A DNA stretch of 64,000 bases from Qingrenia yutianensis (GTDB taxonomy: Bacteria; Bacillota; Clostridia; UMGS1810): contig NZ_JACRTE010000003.1 in NCBI RefSeq assembly GCF_014385105.1, forward strand, positions 112,358 through 176,357. Direction: 5' to 3'. Shown here piece after piece: positions 20,909 to 41,144 of this stretch. Within the stretch, counting starts at the first letter, position 1. Each line of letters starts with the position of its first letter. A model generated the notes under the pieces. The model was not told the origin of the DNA. It did not search any database and worked only from the letters and a program-made list of their open reading frames with translations. The translations under genes were made by a program, and so were the position numbers.

Positions 20909-22510
20909 TTATTTTTCCCGTGCATACAGTGCCGCAAAATTAAGAAGCTGCTTTTTTGAGGAAACGCCGAGCTTGCTGTAAATATTGCCGTTATGGTATT
21001 TAAGTGTACTCTCTTTAACTTCTGCAATCTGTAAAATTTCAGGAACGGTTTTTCCCTCCAGATAGAGGTCAAATATTGTTCTCTCCTTGGGAGTAAGGCT
21101 GCGTAAACCCGAACAGAAATGATCATAATCATCCTGTATGATGATATTTTTATGCTCTTTCATCAGACGCTTGTTTTCGGTTCTGATGCGTTCAATCTCG
21201 CTTTGCAGACTCTCGTTTTTTTCGGAATGCTCATCGAAGATTTTTTGATATTCGTTATCCTTTCCGGCAAGAAATGCAAAAAGGTCGTCAATTTCCATAA
21301 TACCGCTTTGACTTTCGTCGGAATATGTCTTTTCGGATTGCTTTATTTTGTCAAGCGATTTTTTTATCGGAAGGATAAATCGATTTGAAAAATACAGGCT
21401 AAGGCTTAAAACAGCAAATCCCAAAATCAGAATTATGAGTATAAGCTGTATGGTGTTTTTCGTTTCCAGCCCGGAATAATCCGCATACGGCATCATAACC
21501 GTAATAGAATAAGGTGTGTTTTCGGAATAAAGAGTTGTGTTTCTCGTCATGCCGATATATGCGCCGTATTCATTTTTTAAAGCGACAAGACCCTTTTTCA
21601 GCGGCTTGATTTTGAGGGAATCCTTAGGTGCAAGGAAATATCCGTTTTTTGCTCCGCAGCTTAATCCCTCTTTGATATTGATTTCTTTATCGCCCGAGCG
21701 GGAGAATATGCAGGTTATGTGCGGAAGCGTGGACGGCTGTGCGTGTGCGGACTTAAAAACGCTTTCGTTTACTTCAAAGCCGCAGATGCCGTAAACGCGG
21801 CCGCCGTCGCCTCTGATAGGAAGCGCTACAAGCATAACACGCTCCGACGTTCCGGGAAGCGTTATAATATTACAAATATGAGTGGCTTTTTCAATCGGCT
21901 CGGCGGTATCCGAAAGAACTTCTTCAAAATTCGGGAATCCCCCGGTGTCAAATTCCAAATGCCATTTACGGTGAGGCATAATGCCTTTGTTTATTGCAGC
22001 CTTCACATTTCCCCTGTAAAGAAGCATTGTTTCCTTGTCCGTTGTTCCGAACAGATCCTGATTAAGGTACACGCCTGCTTTTGAACCGCTTTCGCCGGTT
22101 TGAGATGCGTTAATCAGAATAAAAGCGCCGGAACAGCTTGCCTTTAAAAGCTCGTTCTTCAATAAATCAATATAGCGTTCCTCAAGAGCGTTGATATGCA
22201 AAAAAGAATTCTGAACGACGCCAAAATCTGTATTTTCCGAATTGAGATATTGCTCGGTAAGCTGTGCGGCTTTTTCGGAAAGCTGTGCGCCGCGCAAGGT
22301 AATATCATTGTAGTAAGACGTCATTTCACGGTCGAAAAACTCAATCTGAAGGCTTAATATATCCGATATTTTATCCTCGGTTGTCGAAAAACGTCCGAAC
22401 AGGAAAAGAAAAGCCGCAAATATAAGCAATAAAACGATAGCCAGGATAAACATATATCCAAACAGCTTTTTTTGCATAGATTGTCTTTTGTTTCTTACCG
22501 ATATTTGCAT
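20909..22510 (-). CDS. membrane-embedded LuxR-family one-component transcriptional regulator (TM – ~300-aa extracytoplasmic sensor domain – TM – coiled coil – LuxR HTH)
   Basis: TM1 'FGYMFILAIVLLLIFAAFLFLF', TM2 'IQLILIILILGFAVLSLSLYF', and C-terminal 'LTPKERTIFDLYLEGKTVPEILQIAEVKESTLKYHNGNIYSKLGV' LuxR/FixJ-type HTH. No receiver or kinase domain. Start set at Met 22510, downstream of the binding-protein gene's stop. Confidence 0.7.
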   Translation of the reverse strand: MQISVRNKRQSMQKKLFGYMFILAIVLLLIFAAFLFLFGRFSTTEDKISDILSLQIEFFDREMTSYYNDITLRGAQLSEKAAQLTEQYLNSENTDFGVVQNSFLHINALEERYIDLLKNELLKASCSGAFILINASQTGESGSKAGVYLNQDLFGTTDKETMLLYRGNVKAAINKGIMPHRKWHLEFDTGGFPNFEEVLSDTAEPIEKATHICNIITLPGTSERVMLVALPIRGDGGRVYGICGFEVNESVFKSAHAQPSTLPHITCIFSRSGDKEINIKEGLSCGAKNGYFLAPKDSLKIKPLKKGLVALKNEYGAYIGMTRNTTLYSENTPYSITVMMPYADYSGLETKNTIQLILIILILGFAVLSLSLYFSNRFILPIKKSLDKIKQSEKTYSDESQSGIMEIDDLFAFLAGKDNEYQKIFDEHSEKNESLQSEIERIRTENKRLMKEHKNIIIQDDYDHFCSGLRSLTPKERTIFDLYLEGKTVPEILQIAEVKESTLKYHNGNIYSKLGVSSKKQLLNFAALYAREK

Positions 22511-22523
22511 AACAATCCCCCGT

Positions 22524-23846
22524 CTATTTTTCGCAGAGCTTTTGCCAAAGTCCCTCGGCAAGTGCTTCGGGCGGCGTGTTGCTTAATATAAATTGTTTCT
22601 GTTCGTTTCTTAAATAATCGTAAAATGCGTAAACTCTGCTGTAATATTCGGGACTTTGCTGTTCCGATAAAACCTCCGAGCTTTCCTTAATTTTTTTTAG
22701 GGCTGCATAGAGTTTTTCATAATCGGCTGTCTTGAAACGGCAGTCGTCTATTTTGTCAAACGCACCGTTTGTAACCGGCATATAACCTGTTTGGCTTACG
22801 AACTCAAGATTTCTCTCCGGCTCGGTGAGCCATTTGGCAAAAATCACTGCAGCCTCTGCTTTTTGACTTGATGTTTTATATGCGCAAAGACCGACTCCGG
22901 CTTGCGTGATATACGGCTTTTTTCCGTTTTCAGCGGGCAGAGGCAGTATATCCAGATCCATCGGCTCACTCGTTCCGTCCTCATATGTCACGGTATCATT
23001 ATAGTAAAGAATTGCGGCGGACGAGCCTATGCCGGCTACAACCTCGCCTGTCATCACCTGTGTGTTTGAATAGAGATTTGAAAGCATAATATGCCCTTTT
23101 GCAAGCGAATCCGCAAATTTCATAAAGGTTTGCTTAAAAATCACGTTTGACGGGTCATAGAATCCGTTGTCGGCAAAAATATTTCCTGCGCCGCTTTCCG
23201 CAGCCGCAAGCTCAATGGCTCGCAGCGGATAATCAAGAGCGCAGAACGGTTTTCCGCCCGACCAGTCATAATATTTCGCGGCAGCATCGAAAAACCCGTC
23301 CCAGGTGGACAGCGCTTCATATGTAACGCCCGTATCGGCTGAAAAGCGTTCAAACTGACCGCCGGCGATAAACAAAAGATGGGTGGATTTGGACACCGGG
23401 AACACGGACAGCTTTCCTTCTGCCGTGCCGTCCTCCAAAAACTCCGGAACGTATGCCGAAAGCTCTTTTTCGGAAAAATATTCGTTCCAGTCAAGTAAAC
23501 AATCCGTTCCAAGCTCCAGCGCGTTGCTTTTGTGCGCAAAGAAAAGGTCGGGCATTTCGGCGGAACCGGGAATCTTATTATGTGCGTCAAGCAGTTTTTC
23601 GCCTATTTTGGAGGCATTCGACATTGCCGTAACATTGATAATAATGCCTTTTTCCATGCCAACTGTCTCGTTAAATTCGTCAATAAGCCGATTCATCGGC
23701 GAATACGCTTGTTCTCCGTAAACGTGCCACATTGTAAGCGTAACGGGTTTGTTTTTATCAAGCTTCGATTTTTTGCAGCCGGAAAGGCAGCATATTGATA
23801 TGCTGAAAATGAGAAAAAGCAAAAATAATTTTCTTGCTGAATTCAT
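22524..23846 (-). CDS. extracellular solute-binding lipoprotein (family 1, sugar-type ABC binding protein)
   Basis: Lipobox 'CCLSGC' and a 440-aa periplasmic-binding-protein fold. It sits directly upstream of, and co-transcribed with, the LuxR-type regulator. No permease or ATPase genes are adjacent. Confidence 0.75.
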   Translation of the reverse strand: MNSARKLFLLFLIFSISICCLSGCKKSKLDKNKPVTLTMWHVYGEQAYSPMNRLIDEFNETVGMEKGIIINVTAMSNASKIGEKLLDAHNKIPGSAEMPDLFFAHKSNALELGTDCLLDWNEYFSEKELSAYVPEFLEDGTAEGKLSVFPVSKSTHLLFIAGGQFERFSADTGVTYEALSTWDGFFDAAAKYYDWSGGKPFCALDYPLRAIELAAAESGAGNIFADNGFYDPSNVIFKQTFMKFADSLAKGHIMLSNLYSNTQVMTGEVVAGIGSSAAILYYNDTVTYEDGTSEPMDLDILPLPAENGKKPYITQAGVGLCAYKTSSQKAEAAVIFAKWLTEPERNLEFVSQTGYMPVTNGAFDKIDDCRFKTADYEKLYAALKKIKESSEVLSEQQSPEYYSRVYAFYDYLRNEQKQFILSNTPPEALAEGLWQKLCEK

Positions 23847-23928: not shown

Positions 23929-24014
23929 ATCCTATACTTTTTCCCCTACTTTTTCAAAAAAACTTAAATTCTTTTGAAATTCATCCTATACTTTTGGCAA
24001 AAAGTATGGGGACA
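23929..24014. promoter_or_regulatory. cluster of CC(n)TACTTTT(T) motifs including a 26-bp palindrome; candidate operator in divergent promoter region
   Basis: aTCCTATACTTTTT (23929–23942), TCCCCTACTTTTT (23942–23954) and aTCCTATACTTTTGG (23983–23997) form an inverted pair with CAAAAAGTATGGGG (24000–24013). Confidence 0.4.
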
Positions 24015-24209
24015 AAAAGATATTTCTATGTATAATGAAAACATGTAAAAACAACAATTTGCAGCACCGGAAAGAATTATCTGCAAAAAAAGATAAAGGG
24101 GCGACCTTTTACGTATGTGTTTCAACCTATTATAAAGTAATCGCAGTTTCTTAAATAAAAAGACGGGTTCTTTTTCAGCTGATATATCCAGCACGAGTAT
24201 ATCACATTC

Positions 24210-24239
24210 TTGGCAATTAGTCAACGGCTTGCGGATAAT
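24210..24239 (+). promoter_or_regulatory. candidate sigma-A promoter TTGGCA –18– GATAAT for the plus-strand gene block
   Basis: TTGGCA at 24210–24215 and GATAAT at 24234–24239. It is about 60 nt upstream of the RBS-supported ATG at 24300 and lies inside the over-extended ORF call 24210..24683. Confidence 0.35.
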
Positions 24240-24299: not shown

Positions 24300-24683
24300 A
24301 TGATAAATGAGAAGCATAAAACGGCTGCATACAAAATTATTCCGTCACAGGGCGGAAACCGTTACAGCTTTTTCTGCGAATTGTCGGGGATGCTTGTTTG
24401 CACAAGCGGAACATATTATGCGGATAATCCGGAAAAAGAGCTTTTTACCGCTTGGGAATCAGAGGGCAAAAATAATTTTAATGTTTGTCACCGATGCGGA
24501 AGATGGGTTGATTCCGTTGTGTATAATCCGGATGTGCTGATGTGCGTGGACTGTGCTCCTCTCGAGGAGGAGGCGAAATACTGCAAGCACTGCGGAGCAA
24601 GAGCGAAAAACGGCGACATAGTTTGCTCCGTATGCGAAAAAAAGTTGTTATACGGAGGTGCCGGTGAAAATGGCGAAATATAA
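24300..24683 (+). CDS. small cytoplasmic double zinc-ribbon protein
   Basis: GGAGG 8 nt upstream of ATG 24300. C-terminal 'CHRCGRW...CVDC' and 'CKHCGAR...CSVC' CxxC pairs. Confidence 0.55.
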   Translation: MINEKHKTAAYKIIPSQGGNRYSFFCELSGMLVCTSGTYYADNPEKELFTAWESEGKNNFNVCHRCGRWVDSVVYNPDVLMCVDCAPLEEEAKYCKHCGARAKNGDIVCSVCEKKLLYGGAGENGEI

Positions 24684-24954
24684 TAATCCGTCAAGAAAAG
24701 AAGTTTTGGAGCATTTCGGTTTCGGTACGGAAAATATGAAAAGGCTTAAAATCTGTCAGTGCTGCGGCAACGCACAGGCCGCAAAAAACAAGCTTTGCGA
24801 GGTTTGTCATACAAAGTTGCGCGATGAAACGCTTTTTGATATTTACAAAGCAAAGCACCGCTGCTGCGAAAAATGCGGGAACGTGCTTCCGGATGACGCG
24901 GAGTACTGTCCCTTGTGCGGGGCGAAACAAAATAATGAAAGAGAGTCAATATAA
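24670..24954 (+). CDS. small double zinc-ribbon protein (overlaps upstream gene by ~14 nt)
   Basis: 'CQCCGN...CEVC' and 'CEKCGN...CPLCG'. Start at ATG 24670 is preferred over the called GTG 24658, which overlaps the ribosome-binding site. Confidence 0.5.
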   Translation: MAKYNNPSRKEVLEHFGFGTENMKRLKICQCCGNAQAAKNKLCEVCHTKLRDETLFDIYKAKHRCCEKCGNVLPDDAEYCPLCGAKQNNERESI

Positions 24955-25128: not shown

Positions 25129-25524
25129 ATGAAAGGAAGAAAGTTTTTGAAGGTCACGGGTATTCTGATGATTATCGGAGGAGCATTTGGTATCATCGGA
25201 GGGATTGTTGCAATGATCGGAGCAGGAGCTTTGGCGGCGGTTCTTGAAACGAGTGCCGGCGGGCTTATGCTTGCAAGTGCGCTGATTCTGGCAAGTGCAG
25301 TATTTCAGCTGGTTGCCGGAATTATGGGTGTAAAAAACTGCGATAAACCCGAAAAGGCTCAAAGCTGCATAGTTATTGGCGTAATTGTGGCAATTTTAAG
25401 CGTAGCGGGAAACGTTATTTCAAACGTGCTTGGCAGTGATTTTAACATCATTAACTACGTTGCCGGTCTGATTATTCCGGTTCTGTACATAATTGGTGCG
25501 GTAAAAAATAAAGAGCCGGCATAA
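25129..25524 (+). CDS. small Gly-rich integral membrane protein (3–4 TM helices)
   Basis: AAGGAGG ribosome-binding site. Hydrophobic GxxxG-rich helices 'ILMIIGGAFGIIGGIVAMIGAGALAAV'. Confidence 0.55.
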   Translation: MKGRKFLKVTGILMIIGGAFGIIGGIVAMIGAGALAAVLETSAGGLMLASALILASAVFQLVAGIMGVKNCDKPEKAQSCIVIGVIVAILSVAGNVISNVLGSDFNIINYVAGLIIPVLYIIGAVKNKEPA

Positions 25525-25592: not shown

Positions 25593-26771
25593 GTGATTTT
25601 TATTAAAAAATATATTGCTTTTTTAACGGTTTTATTTCTTTTTATTTTCGGTAATATACTTTGCGTCAATGCCGGCGCAGATATTGCGGTTGGAATAACG
25701 ATAAACGGGGAAGTTATCGAAACGGAGGTTTCACCCTTTGTGGAAAACGGACGTACGCTCGTTCCGGTGAGAGCCGTTTCGGAGCATTTAAAGTACAGCG
25801 TTGAGTGGTTTGCGGAGGAACAAAGAGTCGATATTGATTCGCCCTCCGATAAGCTTACGCTTTACATAGGCAGCGCAGACTATTATAAAAACGGTGAAAA
25901 AAGAACCATGGACGTTCCTGCGGTAATTAAAGACGAAAGAACCTTTGTTCCCCTGCGGCTGGTTGCCGAGGAAATGGGATGTGAGGTTAAATGGGACGAA
26001 GAAAATAATATTGCAAATGTAATAAAATATAACATTGTGGAGGCAAAGACGCCTCATGATATTATACTTAATGCGGCAAGCTATACAAAAATCATTCTTA
26101 AGGAGCAGGAATATGATTTATCGGAGCTTGACGCGATAAATATTGATAACCCCAATGTTTTTGCAGACGATACCTTTGAAGGATACGAATATATAATAAA
26201 AGACGTATCCAATCTTGTTATAGAAGCACCGGAGGGAATAAGCGCTTCTGTTGTAACTCAGGCTCCCTACGCAAACGTACTAAGCTTTAAGGGATGCAGC
26301 GGTATTGTGCTTAAAAATATCACGGCAGGACATAAGGTTGAGAAGGGCTATTGTACCGGCGGCGTAATAATGCTTGACGGTTGCCGGGATATAAATATTG
26401 ATAAATGCGGCCTGTACGGCTGCGGAACGTACGGAATAACTGCGACAGACTCTGCTGAAATAACTGTGGAAAACACGGAAATATATGAGTGCACATATGG
26501 GCTTGTTGAGTTAAGCGACTGTGGCGGAATTAAGTTTAACGGCTGCACATTCAGAGATTCCGGGATGTTTTCAATGTTTGTACTGGACGGCTGCAGCGGT
26601 GTAAGCGTAACAAACTCGGAAATTAAAAATAACAACAGTTCGGAGAATTCGTATTTTATAAGCGCTTACGATTGTTCGGATATTGAATTTTCCGGCTGTG
26701 ACTTTTCAAATAATTCTTATTATAATTTCTGCAGCGGCGATGCTGTAAAATTTACCGGATGCAAATTATGA
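25593..26771 (+). CDS. secreted protein: two copper-amine-oxidase N-terminal-like (stalk) domains + Cys-rich right-handed beta-helix repeats
   Basis: Signal peptide; 'RTLVPVRAVSEHLKYSVEW' and 'RTFVPLRLVAEEMGCEVKW' stalk-domain motifs. The C-terminal 150 aa carry more than 14 Cys in 'GCxG/ CGxYG' ~20-aa repeats. Confidence 0.6.
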   Translation: MIFIKKYIAFLTVLFLFIFGNILCVNAGADIAVGITINGEVIETEVSPFVENGRTLVPVRAVSEHLKYSVEWFAEEQRVDIDSPSDKLTLYIGSADYYKNGEKRTMDVPAVIKDERTFVPLRLVAEEMGCEVKWDEENNIANVIKYNIVEAKTPHDIILNAASYTKIILKEQEYDLSELDAINIDNPNVFADDTFEGYEYIIKDVSNLVIEAPEGISASVVTQAPYANVLSFKGCSGIVLKNITAGHKVEKGYCTGGVIMLDGCRDINIDKCGLYGCGTYGITATDSAEITVENTEIYECTYGLVELSDCGGIKFNGCTFRDSGMFSMFVLDGCSGVSVTNSEIKNNNSSENSYFISAYDCSDIEFSGCDFSNNSYYNFCSGDAVKFTGCKL

Positions 26772-26795: not shown

Positions 26796-27875
26796 ATGGA
26801 AACAGTACAAAGCTATAAGTGTCCTTGCTGCGGTGCTTCGCTGATTTTCCAAAACGAGTCGCTGCACTGCGATTCCTGCGGAAATGATTTTGAGCTTGAC
26901 GCTATGCGGCAAATTGAGGATGTCGGATCGCAAATGCAGGGAGAGTCAAAATATGACTGGGAGCATTACGAACCGAGAAACTATGAAACAGACGGAGAAA
27001 TTGAACTTGCAAGCTATACCTGTCCCTCCTGCGGTGCGGAGATAACCGGTGACGATACAATGGGGTCGACCATCTGCCCTTACTGCGGTGATGCGGCGGT
27101 AATCAAGGGACAGTTTGAGGGAACACTGCGCCCTGATTATATTATTCCGTTTAAAACAGAAAAAAAGGCGGCAATAGAGGCGTTTGAGGCAGATTTCAAA
27201 AATGCGCCGTTTCTGCCGGACGAATTTAAGGTTAAGAAGAAAATTGAAGAAATGACAGGTGTTTACGTGCCATTCTGGATGTTCGATTGCGATTGCAACG
27301 CAGCAATAACTTACGGGGCACAAAGAACCACAAGCTGGAGTGATTCCAATTACAATTATACCAAAACAGATTATTACAGACTTTTCAGAAGCGGCAGTGT
27401 GGGTTTTGCCAACATTCCTGTTGACGGCTCAAAAAAGGCGGATGACGCATATATGGAGGCGGTAGAACCTTTTTGTTATGATGATGCAGTGGAGTTTAAC
27501 GGCGCATATCTTTCGGGGTATATGGCGGATAAATATGATGTTTCGGCAGAGGAAAGCATAGAGCGAGCTAACGAACGTGTAAAAAATTCAACGGTTTCGG
27601 TATTTAAGGAGACGACGAGCGGTTACGCTGCGGTGATTCCCGAAAGTACAAAAATCAGCTTTTCAGGCGGTAAAATAAGGTATTCCCTTCTCCCGGTTTG
27701 GATGCTTAACATCAAATATATGAACAATACCTATAAGTTTGCTGTCAACGGACAGACCGGTAAGGTTGTCGGTGAATATCCTATTGATAACGGAAAAAAA
27801 TGGAGATACTTTGCGAAAATTGCAGGCTTTGCTTATATAGCAGCTGCAGTTATAGCATATTTCTTGCTGCATTAG
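26796..27875 (+). CDS. YdjG-like protein: N-terminal double zinc ribbon, C-terminal TM anchor
   Basis: 'CPCCGAS...CDSCGN' and 'CPSCGAE...CPYCG'. C-terminal TM 'FAKIAGFAYIAAAVIAYFLL'. Directly followed by the TPM gene. Confidence 0.6.
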   Translation: METVQSYKCPCCGASLIFQNESLHCDSCGNDFELDAMRQIEDVGSQMQGESKYDWEHYEPRNYETDGEIELASYTCPSCGAEITGDDTMGSTICPYCGDAAVIKGQFEGTLRPDYIIPFKTEKKAAIEAFEADFKNAPFLPDEFKVKKKIEEMTGVYVPFWMFDCDCNAAITYGAQRTTSWSDSNYNYTKTDYYRLFRSGSVGFANIPVDGSKKADDAYMEAVEPFCYDDAVEFNGAYLSGYMADKYDVSAEESIERANERVKNSTVSVFKETTSGYAAVIPESTKISFSGGKIRYSLLPVWMLNIKYMNNTYKFAVNGQTGKVVGEYPIDNGKKWRYFAKIAGFAYIAAAVIAYFLLH

Positions 27876-27886
27876 GAGGGAGCTAA

Positions 27887-28663
27887 ATGAAAAGATTTGT
27901 TGCAATCATGATTGCCCTTCTCTGCTTTGTATCGACAATTACCGTATATGCGGATTTTATCAATCCAACGATTACGGATTCGGTCGGATACCTGACAGAG
28001 GAACAAAATAAAGAGCTGTCGGCAAGGCTTGATAAAATTCGTGAACAATATAATTTTGACATCGTATTTGTTTCAGAGGATAGATTATCTGCCTATGACG
28101 CACAAGCGGCGGCAGACGACATTTACGATTATAATGGCTACGGTTACGGTGATAATTATGACGGAATACTTTTTTATATAGCAGATTCCGAAAGAGAATA
28201 TCATTTTTCCGTCTGCGGCAGCGGCGAGACAATATTTAACAAAAACGGTCTTGCATACCTTGAAAAAAAGATTGTGCCGTATTTAAAGGAAGATAACTAT
28301 TATGCTGCAGTCAAATCATACGCCGACCGTACGGAAGAGCTTTTGGAGATGGCAGCAGAGGGTAAGCCGTTCAACAAGAGGCAGCACAGCATGAAGTATA
28401 TCCTGTGTGTGGTTGCCGGGGCGCTTCTTCTTCCCCTTATTCTTGCGTATTTTATGATGCACAAAAAGCTCTGCGCAATGAAAACGGCGGTCAAAGAGGA
28501 CTATGCCGGCAATTATATGAAGCCGAACAGTATGAATCTTGACTTTTCAAGGGATATATTCCTTTACAGCACCGTGACAAAAACGGAAAAACCGAAATCG
28601 GATTCCGGCAGCCATACATCGTCTTCCGGAAGAAGTCACGGCGGAAGGGGCGGAAGTTTTTAA
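27887..28663 (+). CDS. TPM-domain (YgcG/YdjH-like) membrane protein with Gly-rich C-terminal tail
   Basis: Signal/TM, then a TPM core 'VGYLTEEQNKELSARLDKIREQYNFDIVFVSEDRL...GILFYIADSEREYHFSVCGSGE', a C-terminal TM and 'SSGRSHGGRGGSF'. Confidence 0.75.
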   Translation: MKRFVAIMIALLCFVSTITVYADFINPTITDSVGYLTEEQNKELSARLDKIREQYNFDIVFVSEDRLSAYDAQAAADDIYDYNGYGYGDNYDGILFYIADSEREYHFSVCGSGETIFNKNGLAYLEKKIVPYLKEDNYYAAVKSYADRTEELLEMAAEGKPFNKRQHSMKYILCVVAGALLLPLILAYFMMHKKLCAMKTAVKEDYAGNYMKPNSMNLDFSRDIFLYSTVTKTEKPKSDSGSHTSSSGRSHGGRGGSF

Positions 28664-28689
28664 AAACAAATTTTAAGGAGGAAAGAATT

Positions 28690-29568
28690 ATGGGAATAGG
28701 TGATTTTTTTAAGAACATTTTCGGTAAAAAAATTTGTGCATTATGCGGCAAGGAATGCGGCATGATGCATCGCACAAAAATCAGGAACAAGGAATTTTTA
28801 TGTGACGATTGCGGAAATCTATGCTCAAAGTACATTAGGCTGAGCGAGCTGACATTGGACGAAGTCAAGGGGCATATAGAATATATGAAAAGGCAGAACA
28901 GACTTTTTGAGGAGGTCTATTCCAAAGAAGGAAAGAAAGACACATACCCTTCGTCGCTCAAGGAAATGGGCATTGAATTTTGCGATGATTTGGGAATGTT
29001 TCGGATTTTGCACAGAAGCAACACGGGCAGAGGCAAAATGAACGAGCTTTTCCGCTACGATCAGGTGGCAAGCTATGAGGAATACATAGATGAAACACCG
29101 GCAACCGAGCCGGGAAAAAATCCTGAATTTAAGGAATGTGGATTAAAAATCAAGCTTTTGGGCGGAAATATGAGCAAGGTTAATACAGACAACAAAAAAG
29201 GTCTTCGTCCTCATCCGTATATTAAGCATGAAATTAAAGTTTGTTTCAGCAAAAAAGACCGTTCGGATTTGCAGTATGCACACAATGCAAAATGCAAGTT
29301 TGATTATATTTTCGGCGTTCACGATGATGAAAGAGGCTTGTTCGGCTTTGGCAGAAGCAAGGCAGAAAAAAGAGAGGATGCGGCAGCGATTGGAATGGCG
29401 GCGGCATTCGGAACGGCTTTTAAGGCTGCAACAAAAGGCGAGGAAGCCGTAACGGAGGCGGACAAAGAAAAACTGAAGGAAGGCATAAATGCTATGAACG
29501 ACGCAGCGACCGGCGGCATGGCGGTTTACACAAGACGTGCGGACGATGCGGAAGCCAAAATAAAGTAA
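28690..29568 (+). CDS. zinc-ribbon domain protein (N-terminal CxxC...CxxC), cytoplasmic
   Basis: 'CALCGKECG...CDDCGN' near the N-terminus. The remainder has no recognisable motif. AAGGAGG ribosome-binding site. Confidence 0.5.
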   Translation: MGIGDFFKNIFGKKICALCGKECGMMHRTKIRNKEFLCDDCGNLCSKYIRLSELTLDEVKGHIEYMKRQNRLFEEVYSKEGKKDTYPSSLKEMGIEFCDDLGMFRILHRSNTGRGKMNELFRYDQVASYEEYIDETPATEPGKNPEFKECGLKIKLLGGNMSKVNTDNKKGLRPHPYIKHEIKVCFSKKDRSDLQYAHNAKCKFDYIFGVHDDERGLFGFGRSKAEKREDAAAIGMAAAFGTAFKAATKGEEAVTEADKEKLKEGINAMNDAATGGMAVYTRRADDAEAKIK

Positions 29569-29583
29569 CGGGAGGTGCAAAAC

Positions 29584-30768
29584 GTGAAAAAACTATCGTT
29601 ATTGCTTGCAGCACTGCTGATCTTAAGCAGCACTGTTGTCAGTGCGGAATGGGAAACATTCAAATCGGCAGACGGTATGTATGAATACACAAAGGATGGA
29701 GTAATTACCGCTTATTACGGTGATGAATTTGCCTTTTTCCCGGCAGAAATAGACGGAACAATAATCAATGAAATCGGTGTTATGGCTTGTTTTGACTTAG
29801 GACTTGAAGCCATATCCGTTGCCGAAGGAATTGAATTGATAAACACAAATGCATTTGAAGGCTGCAATACCGAAAGTGCATATATTCCGTCAAGTGTGAA
29901 AAATATCGGTGAGCGCGCTTTTGCCAACTGCGCAAATCTTAATGAGGTTACATTGAATTCAGAGGAAATAACGTTTGATTTTGATGTGTTTGCCGGAACC
30001 GGATTTATACAGTTTTATATCCCGTGCACGGCAGATGAGCATGTGATGTACGAAAAAATATCCGACGCAAAGGGTGACGGGAATTTTAGTTTTTCACTTA
30101 TGCATACTGCGCTTGTTGAGAGTATGACGGAAAAGGATATTTTCGGTGAAAACATGATATACTGCGAGGACTGCGGCTTTAAAGGAAGCAAATATCTGGA
30201 GGATACCTCTCTGCCGTTTGCGGACATATCGCCGGACGCATGGTACTATTCTTATGTGCAGACGGCGTACAGCTTCGGCATCATAAACGGGAAAAACAAA
30301 AGGGAATTTGACCCGAATGCAGGGCTTACCTGCGCGGAGGCAGCCAAAATTGCCGCGGTAATTCACAATAAAAGCCAATACGAAAGAGAGGAAGTTGAAT
30401 TCCAAATGACCGGTGAAAACTGGTATGATGTTTATGTGGATTATTGCTATGACAATGCAATACTTGAAGATTATATTATCTTCGATTGGGAGGAAAACGC
30501 AACGCGTGCACAGATGGCATATCTGTTTTCGCGGTGCGACACCAATCCGTATTATATAAACGATGTTCCGATAACCGATATTCCGGACGTTTATGACACA
30601 ACGCCCTTCGCATATGAAATTTTAGACCTTTATAATAAAGGAATTGCGGTGGGAAGCGATGAATACATGGCGTTCTATCCGGATTCACATGTAAAACGCA
30701 GTGAAGCGGCGGCTCTTATTTCGAGAATTCTTTGCTACGATATGCGGATTGAATTGCCGAAAGGGTGA
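29584..30768 (+). CDS. secreted BspA-type leucine-rich-repeat protein with C-terminal SLH domains
   Basis: Signal peptide (GTG start at 29584 after GGGAGG); LRR_5-like 'INTNAFEGCNTESAYIPSSVKNIGERAFANCANLNEVTL'; SLH-like 'FADISPDAWYYSYVQTAYSFGIINGKNKREFDP'. Confidence 0.7.
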   Translation: MKKLSLLLAALLILSSTVVSAEWETFKSADGMYEYTKDGVITAYYGDEFAFFPAEIDGTIINEIGVMACFDLGLEAISVAEGIELINTNAFEGCNTESAYIPSSVKNIGERAFANCANLNEVTLNSEEITFDFDVFAGTGFIQFYIPCTADEHVMYEKISDAKGDGNFSFSLMHTALVESMTEKDIFGENMIYCEDCGFKGSKYLEDTSLPFADISPDAWYYSYVQTAYSFGIINGKNKREFDPNAGLTCAEAAKIAAVIHNKSQYEREEVEFQMTGENWYDVYVDYCYDNAILEDYIIFDWEENATRAQMAYLFSRCDTNPYYINDVPITDIPDVYDTTPFAYEILDLYNKGIAVGSDEYMAFYPDSHVKRSEAAALISRILCYDMRIELPKG

Positions 30769-30782
30769 TTAAGGTGAGGCTG

Positions 30783-31313
30783 ATGAAAGCAATTGCGATA
30801 TTTGCGGTTATTGCCGGTCTTTTCGGATGCAGGGCTCCCGGAGAAAAACCTTTTATATTGGACGGACCGGGCATGGTGTATGTTGACAGTGAGCATCGTA
30901 CAGAATACGCAAATACTCTTCCGTTCGATGAAATCGAGGACTATCCCTATTGGGCGGTCGCATATCTTGGAGAGGGAGAAACCGGCAAAAATACGGCAAA
31001 TGAATATATAGAAAAACTTTTTTCAAAGCTTTCAGAGGAAAAATGCCGGGCAATAAGTCATTATGATTACGGCGGAGAAAAATGGTATCTTGTTATTCCG
31101 CGGTACGGAGATGAGAACGAGCTGATTCAAAACGGCGACAAGAAAAATTTGCAAAAAGCAGATGACGGCACACCGTATATAATAAACTGCGGCGGCGATG
31201 TTGAAATTTATATCGTCATACGCGGCGGACACAAAATCACGCTTGATACGGATGAAAACGACAGGCTGATATGTACCCCTGATATATGGGATATAACAGA
31301 CTATAAAGAATAA
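30783..31313 (+). CDS. hypothetical lipoprotein
   Basis: 'AVIAGLFGCRAP' lipobox-like signal. Start chosen at ATG 30783; the called start 30765 overlaps the upstream stop. Confidence 0.45.
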   Translation: MKAIAIFAVIAGLFGCRAPGEKPFILDGPGMVYVDSEHRTEYANTLPFDEIEDYPYWAVAYLGEGETGKNTANEYIEKLFSKLSEEKCRAISHYDYGGEKWYLVIPRYGDENELIQNGDKKNLQKADDGTPYIINCGGDVEIYIVIRGGHKITLDTDENDRLICTPDIWDITDYKE

Positions 31314-31337
31314 AAATTTTGAGAGGAGAATATAATT

Positions 31338-32663
31338 ATGGGACTTTTAAAGGCGGGCGCAGGCGCTCTTGGCGGTGTTTTGGCTGACCAGTGGAGAGAA
31401 TTTTTCTACTGCGAAAGTTTAGATGCCGACACACTTGTGGCAAAAGGTGAAAAACGAGTGGGAAAAAGAAACTCCAACAAAAAGGGAGACGACAACATTA
31501 TTTCGAACGGTTCTGTCATTTCGGTAAACGAAGGGCAGAGCATGATTATTGTGGAATCCGGAAAGATTGTTGAATTCTGCGCAGAAGCCGGAGAATTTGT
31601 CTACGATAATTCCACAGAGCCGAGTATTTTCTGCGGCAGCTTAGGCGAAAGCATTAAGCAAAGCTTTCAGCAGGTCGGAAAGCGTTTTACTTTCGGCGGC
31701 GAACCGGGCAAGGATCAGAGGGTTTATTATTTCAACACAAAGGAAATTACCGGCAATAAATTCGGCACCTCCTCTCCCGTTCCGTTCAGGGTAACGATAG
31801 ATGAGTCCATGAACTATAAGCTGTCGGTGGATTTAAGGTGTAACGGTGTGTATTCCTATAAAATAGCCGATCCTGTTATGTTTTATACAAACGTAAGCGG
31901 TAATGTGGAATATGTATACAGCCGTTCGGAAATTGACGAAATGTTAAAGAGCGAGCTTCTGGACGCTCTGAGACCGGCATTTGCGCAAATTTCGGCAATG
32001 AAAATAATGTATTCGGAAATACCGGCACATACAAAAGAGGTTACGAAGGCGCTTGCCGAGGAACTTAAAGCCGAGTGGAAGGAAAAACGCGGAATCGAGC
32101 TTTTCGCCGTAAGCATTAACGGTGTATCCATCCCCGAGGACCAGAGAAAGAAGATTACCGAGTGGGAGGAAAACGTTATGACAACCAATCCGAATATTGC
32201 GGCGGCGCGCATTGTCGGCGGGCAGACAGACGCTATGAGAACGGCAGCGGCAAACGAAGGCGGAATGGGTGCAATGGGCGGCTTTTTCGGAATGAATATG
32301 GCGCAGAACGCAGGCGGTATGAATGCGGGCAATCTTTTTGCGATGGGTCAGCAGCAACAGCAGTCTCAGCAGCAGGCACAGCAGCCTCAAGCGGCAGGCT
32401 GGAGCTGTGAATGCGGTCAGACGGGCAATACCGGGAAATTCTGTATGAATTGCGGAAAACCGCAGGCATCGCCCGACGGCTGGACGTGTTCGTGCGGAAC
32501 GGTCAACAAGGGTAGGTTCTGCCAAAACTGCGGGAATCCGAAACCTGCGGGCGCACCGACCTATAAATGCGATAAATGCGGCTGGGAGCCTGAAGATCCC
32601 AAAAATCCGCCGAAATTCTGTCCGGAATGCGGTGACATATTTGATGATAATGATAAACAATAA
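31338..32663 (+). CDS. SPFH-domain protein of the YdjI/COG4260 type with Q/G/M-rich linker and three C-terminal zinc ribbons
   Basis: N-terminus 'GVLADQWREFF', SPFH/band-7-like core, 'MGGFFGMNMAQNAGGMNAGNLFAMGQQQQQSQQQAQQ' linker, then 'CECGQ..CMNCG', 'CSCGT..CQNCG', 'CDKCG..CPECG'. Confidence 0.7.
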   Translation: MGLLKAGAGALGGVLADQWREFFYCESLDADTLVAKGEKRVGKRNSNKKGDDNIISNGSVISVNEGQSMIIVESGKIVEFCAEAGEFVYDNSTEPSIFCGSLGESIKQSFQQVGKRFTFGGEPGKDQRVYYFNTKEITGNKFGTSSPVPFRVTIDESMNYKLSVDLRCNGVYSYKIADPVMFYTNVSGNVEYVYSRSEIDEMLKSELLDALRPAFAQISAMKIMYSEIPAHTKEVTKALAEELKAEWKEKRGIELFAVSINGVSIPEDQRKKITEWEENVMTTNPNIAAARIVGGQTDAMRTAAANEGGMGAMGGFFGMNMAQNAGGMNAGNLFAMGQQQQQSQQQAQQPQAAGWSCECGQTGNTGKFCMNCGKPQASPDGWTCSCGTVNKGRFCQNCGNPKPAGAPTYKCDKCGWEPEDPKNPPKFCPECGDIFDDNDKQ

Positions 32664-32686
32664 AATAATGGGAGGAACTTTATATT

Positions 32687-33859
32687 ATGAAAAAAATATT
32701 AGCGTTAATTTTAGCAGTAGGAATGGTATTTTCGCTCGCTGCGTGCGGCGGTGAAAAAACCGGAAAAGGCACCGAAACAAAGCAGGAAACCAAAAAGATT
32801 GACTACGCAAATATGACAGAGGACGATCTGATAAAAGAGTTTATTAAAGATGAGCAGAATATAACCTTGGATGAATTTATAGACCTTGTTTCTACATATT
32901 CATATGCAACAATCAACAATAAGCTTGAGCTTGATGAAAATATAACAGACAAAGCAATAAAAAAGCTTAAAGAAAATAAAGCAAAGCTGCCGGCGGCAAA
33001 GGAATTTGTTGAGCCTCTTTTAAAAAGTGACGCACCGCAGGTAAGAGGCTATGCTTTTTCAAACATCGCCACATTTTTCGGGGCAAGTGATTCGCATAAA
33101 GCGTCGGCAAAGGAGATTCTGAAAACCGAAAAAGAGCCTTATGTTATTAAATGTGCGGTAAAAGCTCTTGGAAATGAAGGCGGCAAGGATGCAGAAATCG
33201 GCAAATTCCTGCTTGATGCGGCAAAGAATGAAAACGCAGTTGTAAGAAGGCAGGCGGCGGTTGCTCTCGGAAGCACATGGAACAAGACTCTTAACGGAGC
33301 GGTTGATGCAGAGATTGAGCTGATGAAGGATCCGGATAAAGAGGTTCGGAAAGCAGCGTATGAGTATGCCGGTCTCCTCGGTGATGACAGGGTGGTTGCG
33401 CCTATCTCGGAAATGCTGAAAAACGAGGCTGACGCAGACCTTCATTCAAGCGGTGTAAGAGGTCTTGTTTGGCTGTGGTATGATTATCCGTCGCACGAAA
33501 ACACAAGCGAGGCGGCATACAGAGCCACGATAGACTACTTTAAAACCACACCGGGCAGCGACAAAGTTCCCGCATGGGCAGCTGTGACAAGCTTTACAAA
33601 CAAATCCGAGAAGAACTATGACGCATGGAAGGAAAAAGCAACATATTTCAATACAGATGAGCTTTATGAAGTTATGCTCGGACTTGTAAAAAACGAAAAT
33701 TTAGGACGTATGACGCGCGGATATGCCTGCAAACCCGTTGCGGTGCATTGCACAAAAGAGCAGTTTGAAGCGTTTGGCGAGGTTATAAACGCTCTTACCG
33801 ATAAGAATGCGAAATTTATACAGGACGAGTATCAAAATCAGGCAAAAAAGCTTGAATAG
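32687..33859 (+). CDS. HEAT-repeat lipoprotein
   Basis: Lipobox 'LAACGG'. Repeated 'VRxxAaxALG' HEAT-like helices (VRGYAFSNI, VRRQAAVALGS, VRKAAYEYAG). Confidence 0.55.
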   Translation: MKKILALILAVGMVFSLAACGGEKTGKGTETKQETKKIDYANMTEDDLIKEFIKDEQNITLDEFIDLVSTYSYATINNKLELDENITDKAIKKLKENKAKLPAAKEFVEPLLKSDAPQVRGYAFSNIATFFGASDSHKASAKEILKTEKEPYVIKCAVKALGNEGGKDAEIGKFLLDAAKNENAVVRRQAAVALGSTWNKTLNGAVDAEIELMKDPDKEVRKAAYEYAGLLGDDRVVAPISEMLKNEADADLHSSGVRGLVWLWYDYPSHENTSEAAYRATIDYFKTTPGSDKVPAWAAVTSFTNKSEKNYDAWKEKATYFNTDELYEVMLGLVKNENLGRMTRGYACKPVAVHCTKEQFEAFGEVINALTDKNAKFIQDEYQNQAKKLE

Positions 33860-33880
33860 CTGCAGAACGGAGGAATGACT

Positions 33881-34723
33881 ATGAAAAAAATAATCGGCGT
33901 TATACTGATTATAGGAGGCATTTTCTTTGCTTTGCTTGCTGTAAAAGCTCTTGTGTCAGCACCGCAGTCCTACGAGAAAATCAGAGCTGCGGCAACGATT
34001 AAGGACGGCAAGCTTACTCCCGAAAACGAAGGGAAGCTTGTGGTTGTCTCGGGAACGCTTAAACCTGCCGAACAGCTTCAGGATCCCATAACTGGTGTTA
34101 AGCTTCCTGGAGTAACGGCGAAAAGAACCGTTTGGACTTATGAACGGGATACCAACAGCGATGATGAACAGGTGTGGGACTGGAAGCCTGAGAATACCGA
34201 CTACAGCGAAAAGGCAAATTTCGGAATCAATGCCGAAATACTTACAACAACTATGCTTGCCGCGCCTACATTACTCGGTGAGTTTAAGGTGGAGAGCAAC
34301 CTGCTCAATCCGATTATAAGAAACACGGAATTTAAGCAATATGACGAGAAGAGCCTCAATGCGGGCTGGAAGGTGCTTTCGGGCGGAAGAGAAAGCAGCT
34401 ACTGCGTTTCAAAAGAAAATTGGCTGCCGAAAAAATCAACAGGTACATACTCAACGACGGGATATGGAGCTCAAAAAATATCCTACGGTATTGTTTCGCC
34501 CGACGATCCGCTCGAATATACGGTTATCGGCGTACAAAAAGGCGATACCCTGATAAAGAGCGAAGATGTAGATTCTGTTACAACCGTTAAGGGAATTATG
34601 ACGGCGGAAGAATTTGCCGAGGAGAACAAAAAAGGTGTGCGCGGCGGCTCGATTTTCGGTATCGTGGCAGGAATATTGCTTGCAATAATCGGTGTTGGAA
34701 TGATGGCATTCCGGAGGCAGTGA
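33881..34723 (+). CDS. hypothetical membrane protein with N- and C-terminal TM helices flanking a ~220-aa extracytoplasmic domain
   Basis: TM 'IIGVILIIGGIFFALLAV' and TM 'IFGIVAGILLAIIGVGMMAF'. ATG 33881 has GGAGG 7 nt upstream. Confidence 0.5.
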   Translation: MKKIIGVILIIGGIFFALLAVKALVSAPQSYEKIRAAATIKDGKLTPENEGKLVVVSGTLKPAEQLQDPITGVKLPGVTAKRTVWTYERDTNSDDEQVWDWKPENTDYSEKANFGINAEILTTTMLAAPTLLGEFKVESNLLNPIIRNTEFKQYDEKSLNAGWKVLSGGRESSYCVSKENWLPKKSTGTYSTTGYGAQKISYGIVSPDDPLEYTVIGVQKGDTLIKSEDVDSVTTVKGIMTAEEFAEENKKGVRGGSIFGIVAGILLAIIGVGMMAFRRQ

Positions 34724-34725
34724 AA

Positions 34726-35301
34726 ATGAAGACGAATACAAAATTATTCTCCGGAGGCGGAACCTATATTTCAAAAGTGGCAATTGCAAGGCTTACATTA
34801 AAAAAACACATACAAATGATTATAGGCGGATTCTTCACAGCGGTTTTTCTGTTCGGAATTATTTCGGGGGTTACGGGGTATAACGAAGAACTTCGTGATA
34901 ACTTGATTACCAATATAGTCATGCTTGTTCCGTCCGCACTCCTTTTGTTAAACGGCATTAAAAACGGCACAATGGCGGCGCGTGCATATCGCTACAACTC
35001 AATCTTTATGTGCGATATTGACGGCACGGTGACAATTGACGAGCTTGCAAAGCAATCCGGAAAACCGCCGTTCAGGGTGCTTTCCGAGCTTGATAAGCTT
35101 TTTGATAAAGGAGTGTTCTGTGACTGCACTCTGCAAAAGCAGGGATTGCCCTGCGTGATTCTTTCGGGCAGAGAAAACAGTAAAACAAGCTTTGTTAACG
35201 TTGTATGCGAAAAATGCAACGGAACAACAAGGATCCGCGCCGGAAGCTCCGGTAAATGTGAGTATTGCGGAAATGCAATCTCAAGCCGCAATATCGGATA
35301 A
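34726..35301 (+). CDS. membrane protein with C-terminal zinc ribbon
   Basis: Two TM helices, then 'CEKCNG...CEYCGN'. The called start 34720 overlaps the upstream stop by 4 nt. Confidence 0.5.
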   Translation: MKTNTKLFSGGGTYISKVAIARLTLKKHIQMIIGGFFTAVFLFGIISGVTGYNEELRDNLITNIVMLVPSALLLLNGIKNGTMAARAYRYNSIFMCDIDGTVTIDELAKQSGKPPFRVLSELDKLFDKGVFCDCTLQKQGLPCVILSGRENSKTSFVNVVCEKCNGTTRIRAGSSGKCEYCGNAISSRNIG

Positions 35302-35469
35302 ATGCAAAATCCAAAAGAAAGGAGATGCTAAGTTATATCGAAAGATATTAACGCAGACACAGAAATCTGAAGTTCGGATTATACTGTTATGTAATCCGAT
35401 ACATTCCGGCAAATTTTGCAGAGGAATGTAAAATATCACATCAAAAGAATGAAAGGAGGAAACAGCAAA

Positions 35470-41130: not shown

Positions 41131-41144
41131 AAAGGAGGATGAAT

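Follow-up and report, generated by a model that had tools for sequence, protein, structure and literature searches.

A samGHI-type gene cluster without pspA, expanded by zinc-ribbon, surface-protein and lipoprotein genes, in Qingrenia yutianensis

We analyzed a window of 64,000 nucleotides (nt) from Qingrenia yutianensis (contig NZ_JACRTE010000003.1, positions 112,358 to 176,357; all coordinates below are window positions) in which nine plus-strand genes form a tightly packed cluster. Three of these genes encode homologs of the Bacillus subtilis proteins YdjG, YdjH and YdjI (SamG, SamH and SamI), and judged by its sequence this core is a bona fide member of the known SamGHI system. Neither the window nor the flanks of related loci contain pspA, and several of the remaining genes recur with the core in other Clostridia. 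With a probability of roughly 0.6 we read the cluster as a PspA-independent SamGHI-type membrane sensor and scaffold complex which is part of a larger co-transcribed unit. To our knowledge SamGHI/YdjGHI has been studied in B. subtilis only and there chiefly as a membrane tether of PspA. In the following g1–g9 denote the nine cluster genes, u1–u4, r1 and r2 genes upstream of them and L-numbers the fetched loci of relatives.

Homology and architecture of the core genes

As a comparison locus we used L002, a B. subtilis-type pspA-ydjGHI locus fetched via the ydjG primer printed in PMC8581546. BLASTP aligned g1 with YdjG of this locus over the full length (33% identity, 356 aligned positions, E 1e-72). 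The g2 protein is collinear with YdjH (23% identity, E 4e-8), both proteins having a C-terminal GSF, and g6 is collinear with YdjI (21% identity, E 7e-7) across the SPFH domain, the Q/G/M-rich linker and the CxxC ribbon. The g1 protein carries four CxxC motifs and is tail-anchored by a transmembrane (TM) helix at residues 340–358. The g2 protein (Pfam TPM_phosphatase, E 2e-24) begins with a signal peptide, after which the TPM domain lies on the external side of the membrane; a single TM helix then leads into a Gly-rich tail in the cytoplasm, which ends in GGRGGSF. Among the relatives a Gly/Ser-rich cytoplasmic tail is kept. The g6 protein (Pfam Band_7_1, E 5e-18) has no TM helix and carries four C-terminal CxxC motifs. 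Because of the BLASTP matches to L002 and because the same three protein architectures are described by Ravi et al. (2024; PMC11237479), g1, g2 and g6 are assigned to YdjG, YdjH and YdjI. The same assignment had been made in an earlier note on this DNA, and its identification of a TPM domain in 27887..28663 and of an SPFH domain in 31338..32663 holds when checked with Pfam.

Membrane localization of YdjI and PspA in B. subtilis depends on YdjG and YdjH, the latter being an interaction partner of YdjI (Scholz et al. 2021; PMC8581546). SamI keeps the signalling of the G-H unit in check there, and a 2026 preprint presents SamGHI as a sensor complex in its own right, with PspA being dispensable for part of the function. 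The window resembles the B. subtilis operon in that the three homologs have the same architectures and are transcribed in the order G, H, I. Moreover, H and g2 share the TPM domain, the TM helix and a low-complexity tail ending in GSF, and I and g6 are both soluble SPFH proteins with a low-complexity linker and one or more zinc ribbons. The differences are, however, considerable. In B. subtilis pspA is the first gene of the operon, whereas there is none in the window; the window is also without a sigma-W-type promoter. Between H and I lie three other genes, no fewer than seven additional genes seem to be part of the unit, g6 has three C-terminal zinc ribbons instead of the single one of YdjI, and a divergent GerE regulator lies beside the cluster.

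The genes and the candidate regulatory region are listed below in their order along the window.

r1, 20909..22561, minus strand: membrane-bound LuxR/GerE-type one-component regulator (GerE, E 6e-11)
r2, 22524..23846, minus strand: SBP_bac_8 solute-binding lipoprotein, co-oriented with r1 (Pfam, E 2e-19)
Candidate operator and promoter, 23931..24036, plus strand: direct repeat, palindrome and promoter-like site
u1, 24300..24683, plus strand: small cytoplasmic protein with four CxxC motifs; weak DZR matches
u2, 24658..24954, plus strand: double zinc-ribbon protein (Pfam DZR, E 2e-10)
u3, 25129..25524, plus strand: small membrane protein with four TM helices (hydropathy analysis)
u4, 25593..26771, plus strand: secreted Cu_amine_oxidN1 and beta-helix protein (Pfam)
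g1, 26796..27875, plus strand: YdjG/SamG homolog with two N-terminal zinc ribbons, a central domain and a C-terminal TM anchor
g2, 27887..28663, plus strand: YdjH/SamH homolog with signal peptide, TPM domain, TM helix and Gly/Ser-rich tail
g3, 28690..29568, plus strand: cytoplasmic protein with DUF4428 zinc ribbon, putative PH-like beta domain and C-terminal helices
g4, 29575..30768, plus strand: secreted LRR_5 and SLH (cell-wall-binding) protein; likely start 29584
g5, 30765..31313, plus strand: probable lipoprotein without known domain, directly 5′ of the SPFH gene
g6, 31338..32663, plus strand: YdjI/SamI homolog, soluble SPFH/Band_7_1 protein with Q/G/M-rich linker and three C-terminal zinc ribbons
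g7, 32687..33859, plus strand: HEAT-repeat lipoprotein (Pfam HEAT_2)
g8, 33875..34723, plus strand: TMEM43-family bitopic protein (TM helix, ectodomain of about 230 amino acids, TM helix); likely start 33881
g9, 34720..35301, plus strand: membrane protein (two TM helices) whose cytoplasmic part has a helix-loop-helix domain and, C-terminally, a zinc ribbon; start probably at 34726

All nine plus-strand open reading frames (ORFs) which the earlier note had placed in the cluster were found at these coordinates. Pfam bears out the LRR_5 and SLH domains claimed for g4 and the HEAT_2 repeats claimed for g7, and identifies the beta-helix gene said to precede g1 as Cu_amine_oxidN1 plus Beta_helix (u4). 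Together with the predicted topology it also agrees with the description of the three genes between H and I as zinc-ribbon, LRR plus SLH and lipoprotein genes (g3, g4, g5) and of the three genes after the SPFH gene as encoding a HEAT lipoprotein, a bitopic protein and a protein with TM helices and a zinc ribbon (g7–g9). Some details had to be corrected. The genes are closely packed, but the gap between g2 and g3 is 26 nt and thus exceeds the proposed maximum of 25 nt; the two 4-nt overlaps (30765–30768 and 34720–34723), described as ATGA-type, both read GTGA. Shine-Dalgarno spacing favours later starts for g4 (29584), g8 (33881) and g9 (ATG at 34726), and with the later start of g9 its overlap with g8 disappears and becomes a 2-nt gap. 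Strong ribosome-binding sites of the GGAGG type precede g1, g2, g3, g6, g7 and g8. All intergenic gaps from g1 to g9 are at most 26 nt, all genes are on a single strand with the core in the order G, H, I, and the gene order is identical in independent assemblies of the same species. The small gaps and the good ribosome-binding sites suggest that g1–g9 are co-transcribed.

The conservation of g2 is mosaic. At locus L016 (11058–11873) the TPM domain is 33–57% identical, whereas the TM helix and the tail are 71–77% identical, and the genes beside g2 are 88–98% identical to those of the window. The L016 allele is partly Ructibacterium-like. Since it resembles the Ructibacterium allele in places, the pattern suggests that the surface-exposed part of g2 was exchanged by allelic replacement.

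The trio without pspA in other Clostridia

We collected related loci by searching one genome of each species with an alignment of YdjG sequences. The resulting 80 loci range from 99% to 38% identity to g1 and belong to Clostridia-type genomes except for L045, whose record is titled 'Spirochaetia bacterium'; Ructibacterium gallinarum (Oscillospiraceae), Acetivibrio sp. MSJd-27, Hespellia and Faecalicatena are among them. A tblastn search of the 64 kb window with a B. subtilis-type PspA detected no pspA (best E 0.75), and PF04012 (PspA_IM30) did not match any of 17 window proteins (g1–g9, u1–u4, r1, r2, d1 and d2). Likewise, phmmer annotation with the window and B. subtilis proteins revealed no PspA within 10 kb at the 80 related loci. 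A composition screen of the 80 loci for divergent PspA-like coiled-coil ORFs yielded just the true PspA of L002, and none of 130 PspA-sized flanking ORFs from 72 loci matched PF04012 (positive control, E 1.4e-41).

Sixty-two of the 80 loci had adequate flanks and were informative for the layout. The trio is compact in the order G-H-I at 28 of these and in the order I-G-H at 14, so that the core genes are directly adjacent in 42/62 loci; the SPFH gene lies at a distance at nine loci, eight of them in the expanded clade, and 11/62 loci have G-H with no SPFH gene within 10 kb. Given the lack of PspA hits near all 80 loci and the compact trio at 42 of the 62, absence of pspA beside the trio is the rule in the sampled Clostridia. 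The layout had been singled out in the earlier note as pspA-less; this is correct for the window, but it does not distinguish the window from its relatives (0/80 loci with pspA within 10 kb). The compact trios, such as those of Faecalicatena contorta (L068) and Hespellia stercorisuis (L033), are made up of the same three families, are equally free of pspA and have g1 identities of 38–71%. Unlike the cluster in the window they are bare, stand in varied contexts and are without DUF4428, SLH, lipoprotein, TMEM43-like and g9-family genes. The neighbours of the compact trios are heterogeneous among the 80 loci.

The 11 Clostridia loci which keep YdjG-YdjH without an SPFH gene within 10 kb (L050, L052, L055, L057, L062, L070, L074, L077 and L078 among them) suggest that the G-H pair is the minimal conserved unit. 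At L039 a second YdjG/YdjH-like pair is present about 5.5 kb downstream of the first. Two copies are found in the metagenome-assembled genome CAKSOE01, one of the expanded form (L015, g1 90% identical) and one, separate from it, of the compact G-H-I form (L020, g1 71% identical); because both share one genome, the module is duplicated in at least one close relative.

Accessory genes, upstream genes and candidate regulation

A synteny comparison with related Clostridia showed that the accessory genes recur together with the core and are not a one-off. The six extra genes described in the earlier note are all present, their linkage to the core is, however, unequal: g3, an SLH protein, a lipoprotein and g5 recur in distant genomes, whereas g7–g9 have a narrower distribution. 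In the genome scan the full set of g3–g5 and g7–g9 was found only at loci with a g1 identity of at least 88%. The cluster of Ructibacterium/Acetivibrio sp. (g1 78% identical) is rearranged to G, H, lipoprotein, SLH protein, g8, g9, g3, lipoprotein, g4, g5, I, and L026 (g1 64% identical) has the order G, H, I, g4, g3-like gene, two lipoproteins, g5. The g3 family reaches down to about 50% identity and is found together with G, H and I in six or more different gene orders. Five distant g3 homologs (52–56% identity, from independent assemblies) are without exception clustered with a YdjG homolog, TPM and Band_7_1 proteins, usually also with SLH proteins and lipoproteins, and three of these five locus types (L091, L095 and L096) have a GerE-family regulator. 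Locus L095 and the window have in common both the divergent GerE and solute-binding pair and the genes u1, u2, G, H, g3, g5 and I, together with SLH proteins.

SLH proteins are encoded within the module in L017, L021, L026, L091, L095 and L096, and g5 lies directly 5′ of the SPFH gene in the window, L017, L091 and L095, being separated from g6 in L026. The expanded DUF4428 clusters (L091, L095, L089/L092, L096 and L026) thus resemble the window in having G, H, I, a g3-family gene, one or more lipoproteins and usually an SLH protein. A GerE-family regulator is adjacent in L091, L095 and L096 and weak in L026, and there is none in the fetched flanks of L089/L090/L092. In contrast to the window these clusters are without g7, g8 and g9, carry DUF3298/PdaC-like, DUF6935 and other unknown proteins and have other gene orders. 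In L089, L092, L095 and L096 we repeatedly found DUF6935 and DUF3298/PdaC-like proteins as well as unknown paralogous proteins of about 517 amino acids arranged in runs, all of which are missing from the window; they may provide the same core with a different set of accessory proteins.

Wherever g8 and g9 are found they are adjacent. Among the loci examined the pair is restricted to this clade and Ructibacterium/Acetivibrio sp.; though narrower in distribution, g8 and g9 are the most conserved genes of the cluster. Between the window (33875–35301) and Ructibacterium (L017, 14352–15778) both are 87% identical, compared with 78% for g1, 69% for g6 and 61% for g2, and the best 120 matches of a g8 homolog search are all 92–99% identical. 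This indicates either an unusually strong constraint on the g8-g9 pair or its recent spread. The HEAT-repeat gene g7 is clade-specific, being detected only at loci with a g1 identity of at least 88%.

Several of the accessory proteins could be characterized further by domain searches and modelling. The g3 protein (Pfam DUF4428, E 9e-8) has no TM helix and is rich in zinc ribbons. A model computed from an alignment of 53 sequences (predicted local distance difference test, pLDDT, 84; predicted template modelling score, pTM, 0.79) predicts an N-terminal zinc ribbon, a helix, a seven-stranded beta domain with a helix cap and three C-terminal helices. Foldseek returned no significant match, PH domains heading the list. 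From this list and from the seven strands with their helix cap we regard the central domain, with moderate confidence, as PH-like. A 2025 preprint reports DUF4428 at the N terminus of TM-less homologs of the SNIPE nuclease, a place taken by a PH domain in other such homologs. Such a position is compatible with a role of DUF4428 in membrane-proximal targeting.

The g4 protein (Pfam LRR_5, E 2e-14; SLH, E 1e-12) is exported, as are g5, which has a lipoprotein-type N terminus with the non-canonical lipobox LFGC, and g7 (HEAT_2, E 2e-16) with the canonical lipobox LAAC. The match of g8 to TMEM43 (PF07787, E 1e-5) scores 25.5 bits at a cutoff of 23.3, and its topology is TM helix, ectodomain, TM helix. 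The g9 protein has two TM helices and a cytoplasmic domain with a C-terminal CxxC...CxxC ribbon; its family of 352 representatives at E ≤1e-3 is unannotated, and fusions to a Ser/Thr kinase or an L7/L12 C-terminal domain occur in some relatives. Residues 96–109 of g9 contain the conserved motif F-x2-D-x-[DN]-G-x-[VIL]-[TS]-x2-E-L, which fits positions 3, 5, 6, 8, 9 and 12 of an EF-hand loop (36–53 of 56 family members), position 1 being variable and not fitting. The family profile matches calmodulin (E 2.5e-4), and Pfam searches of the individual sequences gave weak winged-helix matches with no EF-hand family among the matches listed. The cytoplasmic helix-loop-helix domain may be winged-helix-like or EF-hand-like. 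An AlphaFold2 model of g9 from the single sequence was discarded as unusable (pLDDT 47).

Upstream of g1 the conserved neighbourhood extends further than had been assumed. The earlier note let the unit start at 26796, which is probably too late: u1, u2 and u3 are conserved neighbours, and a conserved candidate promoter and operator region faces the divergent GerE regulator. The transcription unit probably starts at about 24.0 kb with the small zinc-ribbon genes u1 and u2, whose homologs lie directly 5′ of g1 in L019, L021, L091 and L095. For u1 we prefer ATG at 24300, which has a good ribosome-binding site; a TTG start at 24210 is possible. The u3 gene is found 5′ of g1 in L011, L013–L018 and L093, in most of these with no intervening ORF detected, and is 70% identical in Ructibacterium. 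The secreted protein u4 is present in L009, L010, L030 and L031 and missing between u3 and g1 in L014–L018 and L093; because these close relatives are without it, u4 is probably a recent insertion which lies outside the module. The Cu_amine_oxidN1 domain of u4 shares about 30% identity with the C terminus of a YDG/MBG/Flg_new surface protein of 1113 amino acids (41112–44453) encoded downstream.

The regulator r1 has an extracytoplasmic region of about 320 amino acids, bounded by two TM helices, and a C-terminal helix-turn-helix domain (Pfam GerE, residues 488–542). Homologs of r1 are divergent from the module in L015, L017/L018, L019, L021 and L095, and a weak homolog in L026 is on the same strand. 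The regulators encoded beside the module are a HisKA_7TM-GerE protein in L091 and a histidine kinase with a GerE response regulator in L096. The solute-binding gene r2 is kept with r1 in L015, L016, L017/L018 and L095. Between r2 and u1 the direct repeat CCTATACTTTT occurs at 23931–23941 and 23985–23995, and its second copy is overlapped by a perfect 20-bp palindrome, ATACTTTTGGCAAAAAGTAT, at 23988–24007 with the arms ATACTTTT-N4-AAAAGTAT. This palindrome is present once in the window (expected count 0.07; 7 of 100 shuffles also contained one match). Immediately 3′ of it there is a promoter-like sequence GGGACA-16-TATAAT (24009–24036, score 10/12). An extended -10 element was considered for this promoter and dropped, since the TG directly abuts TATAAT with no spacer base. 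The repeat CCTATACTTTT is kept at the same place in L015 and L016 and as a single copy in L019. The palindrome and the repeat form a candidate operator of the LuxR type, and r1 is the candidate regulator which might act on it and thereby control the cluster.

The pattern TGAAAC-N15-18-GTAT for a sigma-W-type promoter has no match in the window and one match 5′ of pspA in the control locus L002. This relaxed pattern was thus validated on the control; a strict consensus, TGAAAC-N-CGTA, failed on the same positive control and was discarded. An Rfam scan of 20.0–36.5 kb revealed no known RNA element. No convincing intrinsic terminator follows g9, the sole plus-strand hairpin (35139–35154) being located inside g9, and the 3′ boundary at g9 therefore rests on comparative evidence: the genes 3′ of g9 differ among the relatives and the downstream dockerin gene is not a conserved neighbour. 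This gene (35416–41130, 114 nt after g9) encodes a protein of 1904 amino acids with a C-terminal type I dockerin and was found in contigs of the same species only. In L093 conjugative-element genes (DUF6017, DUF3801 and TraG-like) are located 3′ of g9.

Proposed model and alternatives

In the model which we favour the tail-anchored g1, with its zinc ribbons in the cytoplasm, and g2, with the TPM domain outside and the tail inside, would form a membrane-integral unit. The cytoplasmic tail of g2 and the zinc ribbons would recruit the soluble SPFH oligomer g6, which in turn would modulate the G-H unit. The zinc-ribbon-rich proteins u1, u2, g3 and g9 could serve as cytoplasmic, membrane-proximal adaptors, and the wall-bound SLH protein g4, the lipoproteins g5 and g7 and the ectodomain of g8 could constitute an extracytoplasmic set around the external TPM domain. 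Such an envelope-spanning assembly would couple the state of the wall and of the outer membrane leaflet to the SPFH scaffold beneath the membrane. Transcription would probably start at about 24.0 kb under the control of the divergent GerE regulator r1 and not of sigma-W. The physical assembly, the sensing role and any output are, like the link between regulator and operator, what we infer.

The proposed logic, a membrane sensor pair restrained by a peripheral regulatory subunit, is also that of E. coli PspABC-PspF. The components are, however, unrelated in sequence, and no PspA/IM30, PspB, PspC or PspF was found here. With HflK/C-FtsH, the SPFH-NfeD pairs (QmcA-YbbJ) and the flotillins FloA/FloT the model shares an SPFH protein as an oligomeric membrane scaffold, but g6 is without a TM segment or hairpin and Pfam finds no NfeD or FtsH in the cluster. 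Being of the Band_7_1/YdjI type with C-terminal zinc ribbons, g6 differs from these other bacterial SPFH systems.

A number of observations weigh against the favoured model. The identities of g2 and g6 to the B. subtilis proteins are low (23% and 21%), and functional equivalence with them is therefore an extrapolation. The genome could contain pspA elsewhere, our search having covered the 64 kb window. Eleven related loci have G-H and no SPFH gene within 10 kb. The accessory set varies among genomes, and g8 and g9 are absent from most expanded loci. Finally, g7 is split into two ORFs in L004 (11350–12520), g5 was not detected in L005 (9277–10000) and is truncated to 60 amino acids in L093 (7251–7433), the core genes being intact in these three loci. 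It follows from the damaged g5 and g7 genes that not all accessory genes are indispensable. In addition, these genomes encode many SLH proteins and lipoproteins, and surface-protein genes flank the cluster, so that part of the linkage could stem from a surface-protein-rich neighbourhood.

These points lead to the most serious alternative, namely that only G, H and I are functional and that g3–g5, g7–g9 and u1–u4 are independent envelope or zinc-ribbon passengers. The differing accessory content, the bare trio of most Clostridia, the probably recent insertion of u4, the damage to g5 and g7 in some strains and the abundance of surface-protein genes in the surroundings all speak for it. Passengers do not readily account, however, for the g3 homologs, which at 52–56% identity lie beside G, H and I in 5/5 contexts with differing gene orders, nor for g5, which apart from L026 is kept directly 5′ of the SPFH gene in four arrangements. 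In Ructibacterium g8 and g9 have been relocated together with g3 inside the cluster and not lost, the conservation of both genes is above that of the core, and the gaps of at most 26 nt with good ribosome-binding sites point to co-transcription. We consider the passenger explanation unlikely.

As a second alternative the SPFH, TPM and zinc-ribbon proteins might serve the export or attachment of SLH proteins and not stress sensing, the cluster then being a platform for the biogenesis of surface-layer or wall proteins. SLH proteins are indeed encoded in or beside the module in at least six arrangements, but most Clostridia have the compact trio in varied contexts without adjacent SLH genes. The presence of large dockerin (1904 amino acids) and Flg_new/Cu_amine_oxidN1 (1113 amino acids) proteins downstream would fit such a platform; these are, however, not conserved neighbours, and L093 has conjugative-element genes at this place. 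Band-7 and TPM domains have been proposed as chaperone-like assembly factors (PMC11237479), whereas the secretion defect of B. subtilis was attributed to chronic stress signalling and not to the loss of an export platform. We regard a biogenesis platform as quite improbable.

A more elaborate version of the favoured model is a long shot. Here the cluster would encode an undescribed, envelope-spanning and PspA-independent apparatus for membrane integrity, in which SLH, lipoprotein and TMEM43-like reporters on the state of the envelope feed into a SamG-SamH-type sensor, the SPFH oligomer, the DUF4428/PH-like adaptor and several zinc-ribbon proteins form a layer beneath the membrane that processes the signal, and the output feeds back via the membrane-bound GerE regulator. 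The EF-hand-like loop of g9 would sense Ca2+ influx, comparable to the way in which Ca2+ triggers membrane repair in eukaryotic cells.

A phage-derived or anti-phage (abortive infection or membrane-acting) system around the SPFH and zinc-ribbon proteins is very improbable: DUF4428 is an N-terminal module in some homologs of the membrane-bound nuclease SNIPE, the mosaic, allele-like divergence of the TPM ectodomain would be expected of a surface-exposed target and a conjugative element lies downstream in L093, but PADLOC gave just HEAT-repeat similarity for g7 and nothing for g1–g6, g8, g9 and u1, PHROGs gave weak local matches to zinc-ribbon, LRR, SLH and signal-peptide segments and none to the TPM and SPFH proteins, Pfam detected no nuclease, toxin or other effector domain in the cluster, the flanks of the 80 loci consist of heterogeneous housekeeping-type genes and not of defence islands, and no repeats or integrase mark a mobile element in the window.

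Returning to the PspA-independent sensor and scaffold complex, the trio is kept without pspA across the sampled Clostridia, which suggests that it is an autonomous module and that the link to pspA may be specific to the Bacillus lineage. This comparative picture fits the view of the 2026 preprint that SamGHI is itself the sensor complex. The expanded, regulator-linked form with a DUF4428/PH-like protein appears to be undescribed, as far as the literature that we read from a full-text search for DUF4428 and the passages searched in the phage-shock-protein (PSP) surveys go. It nominates as partners of the core the DUF4428/PH-like adaptor, the SLH proteins, the g5-type lipoprotein, the TMEM43-like/g9 pair and the GerE regulator with its candidate operator, all of which could be tested in the cultured relative Ructibacterium gallinarum DSM 107454. 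It would thereby offer first functional contexts for DUF4428, for the bacterial TMEM43 homologs and for the unannotated g9 family with its approximately 350 representatives.

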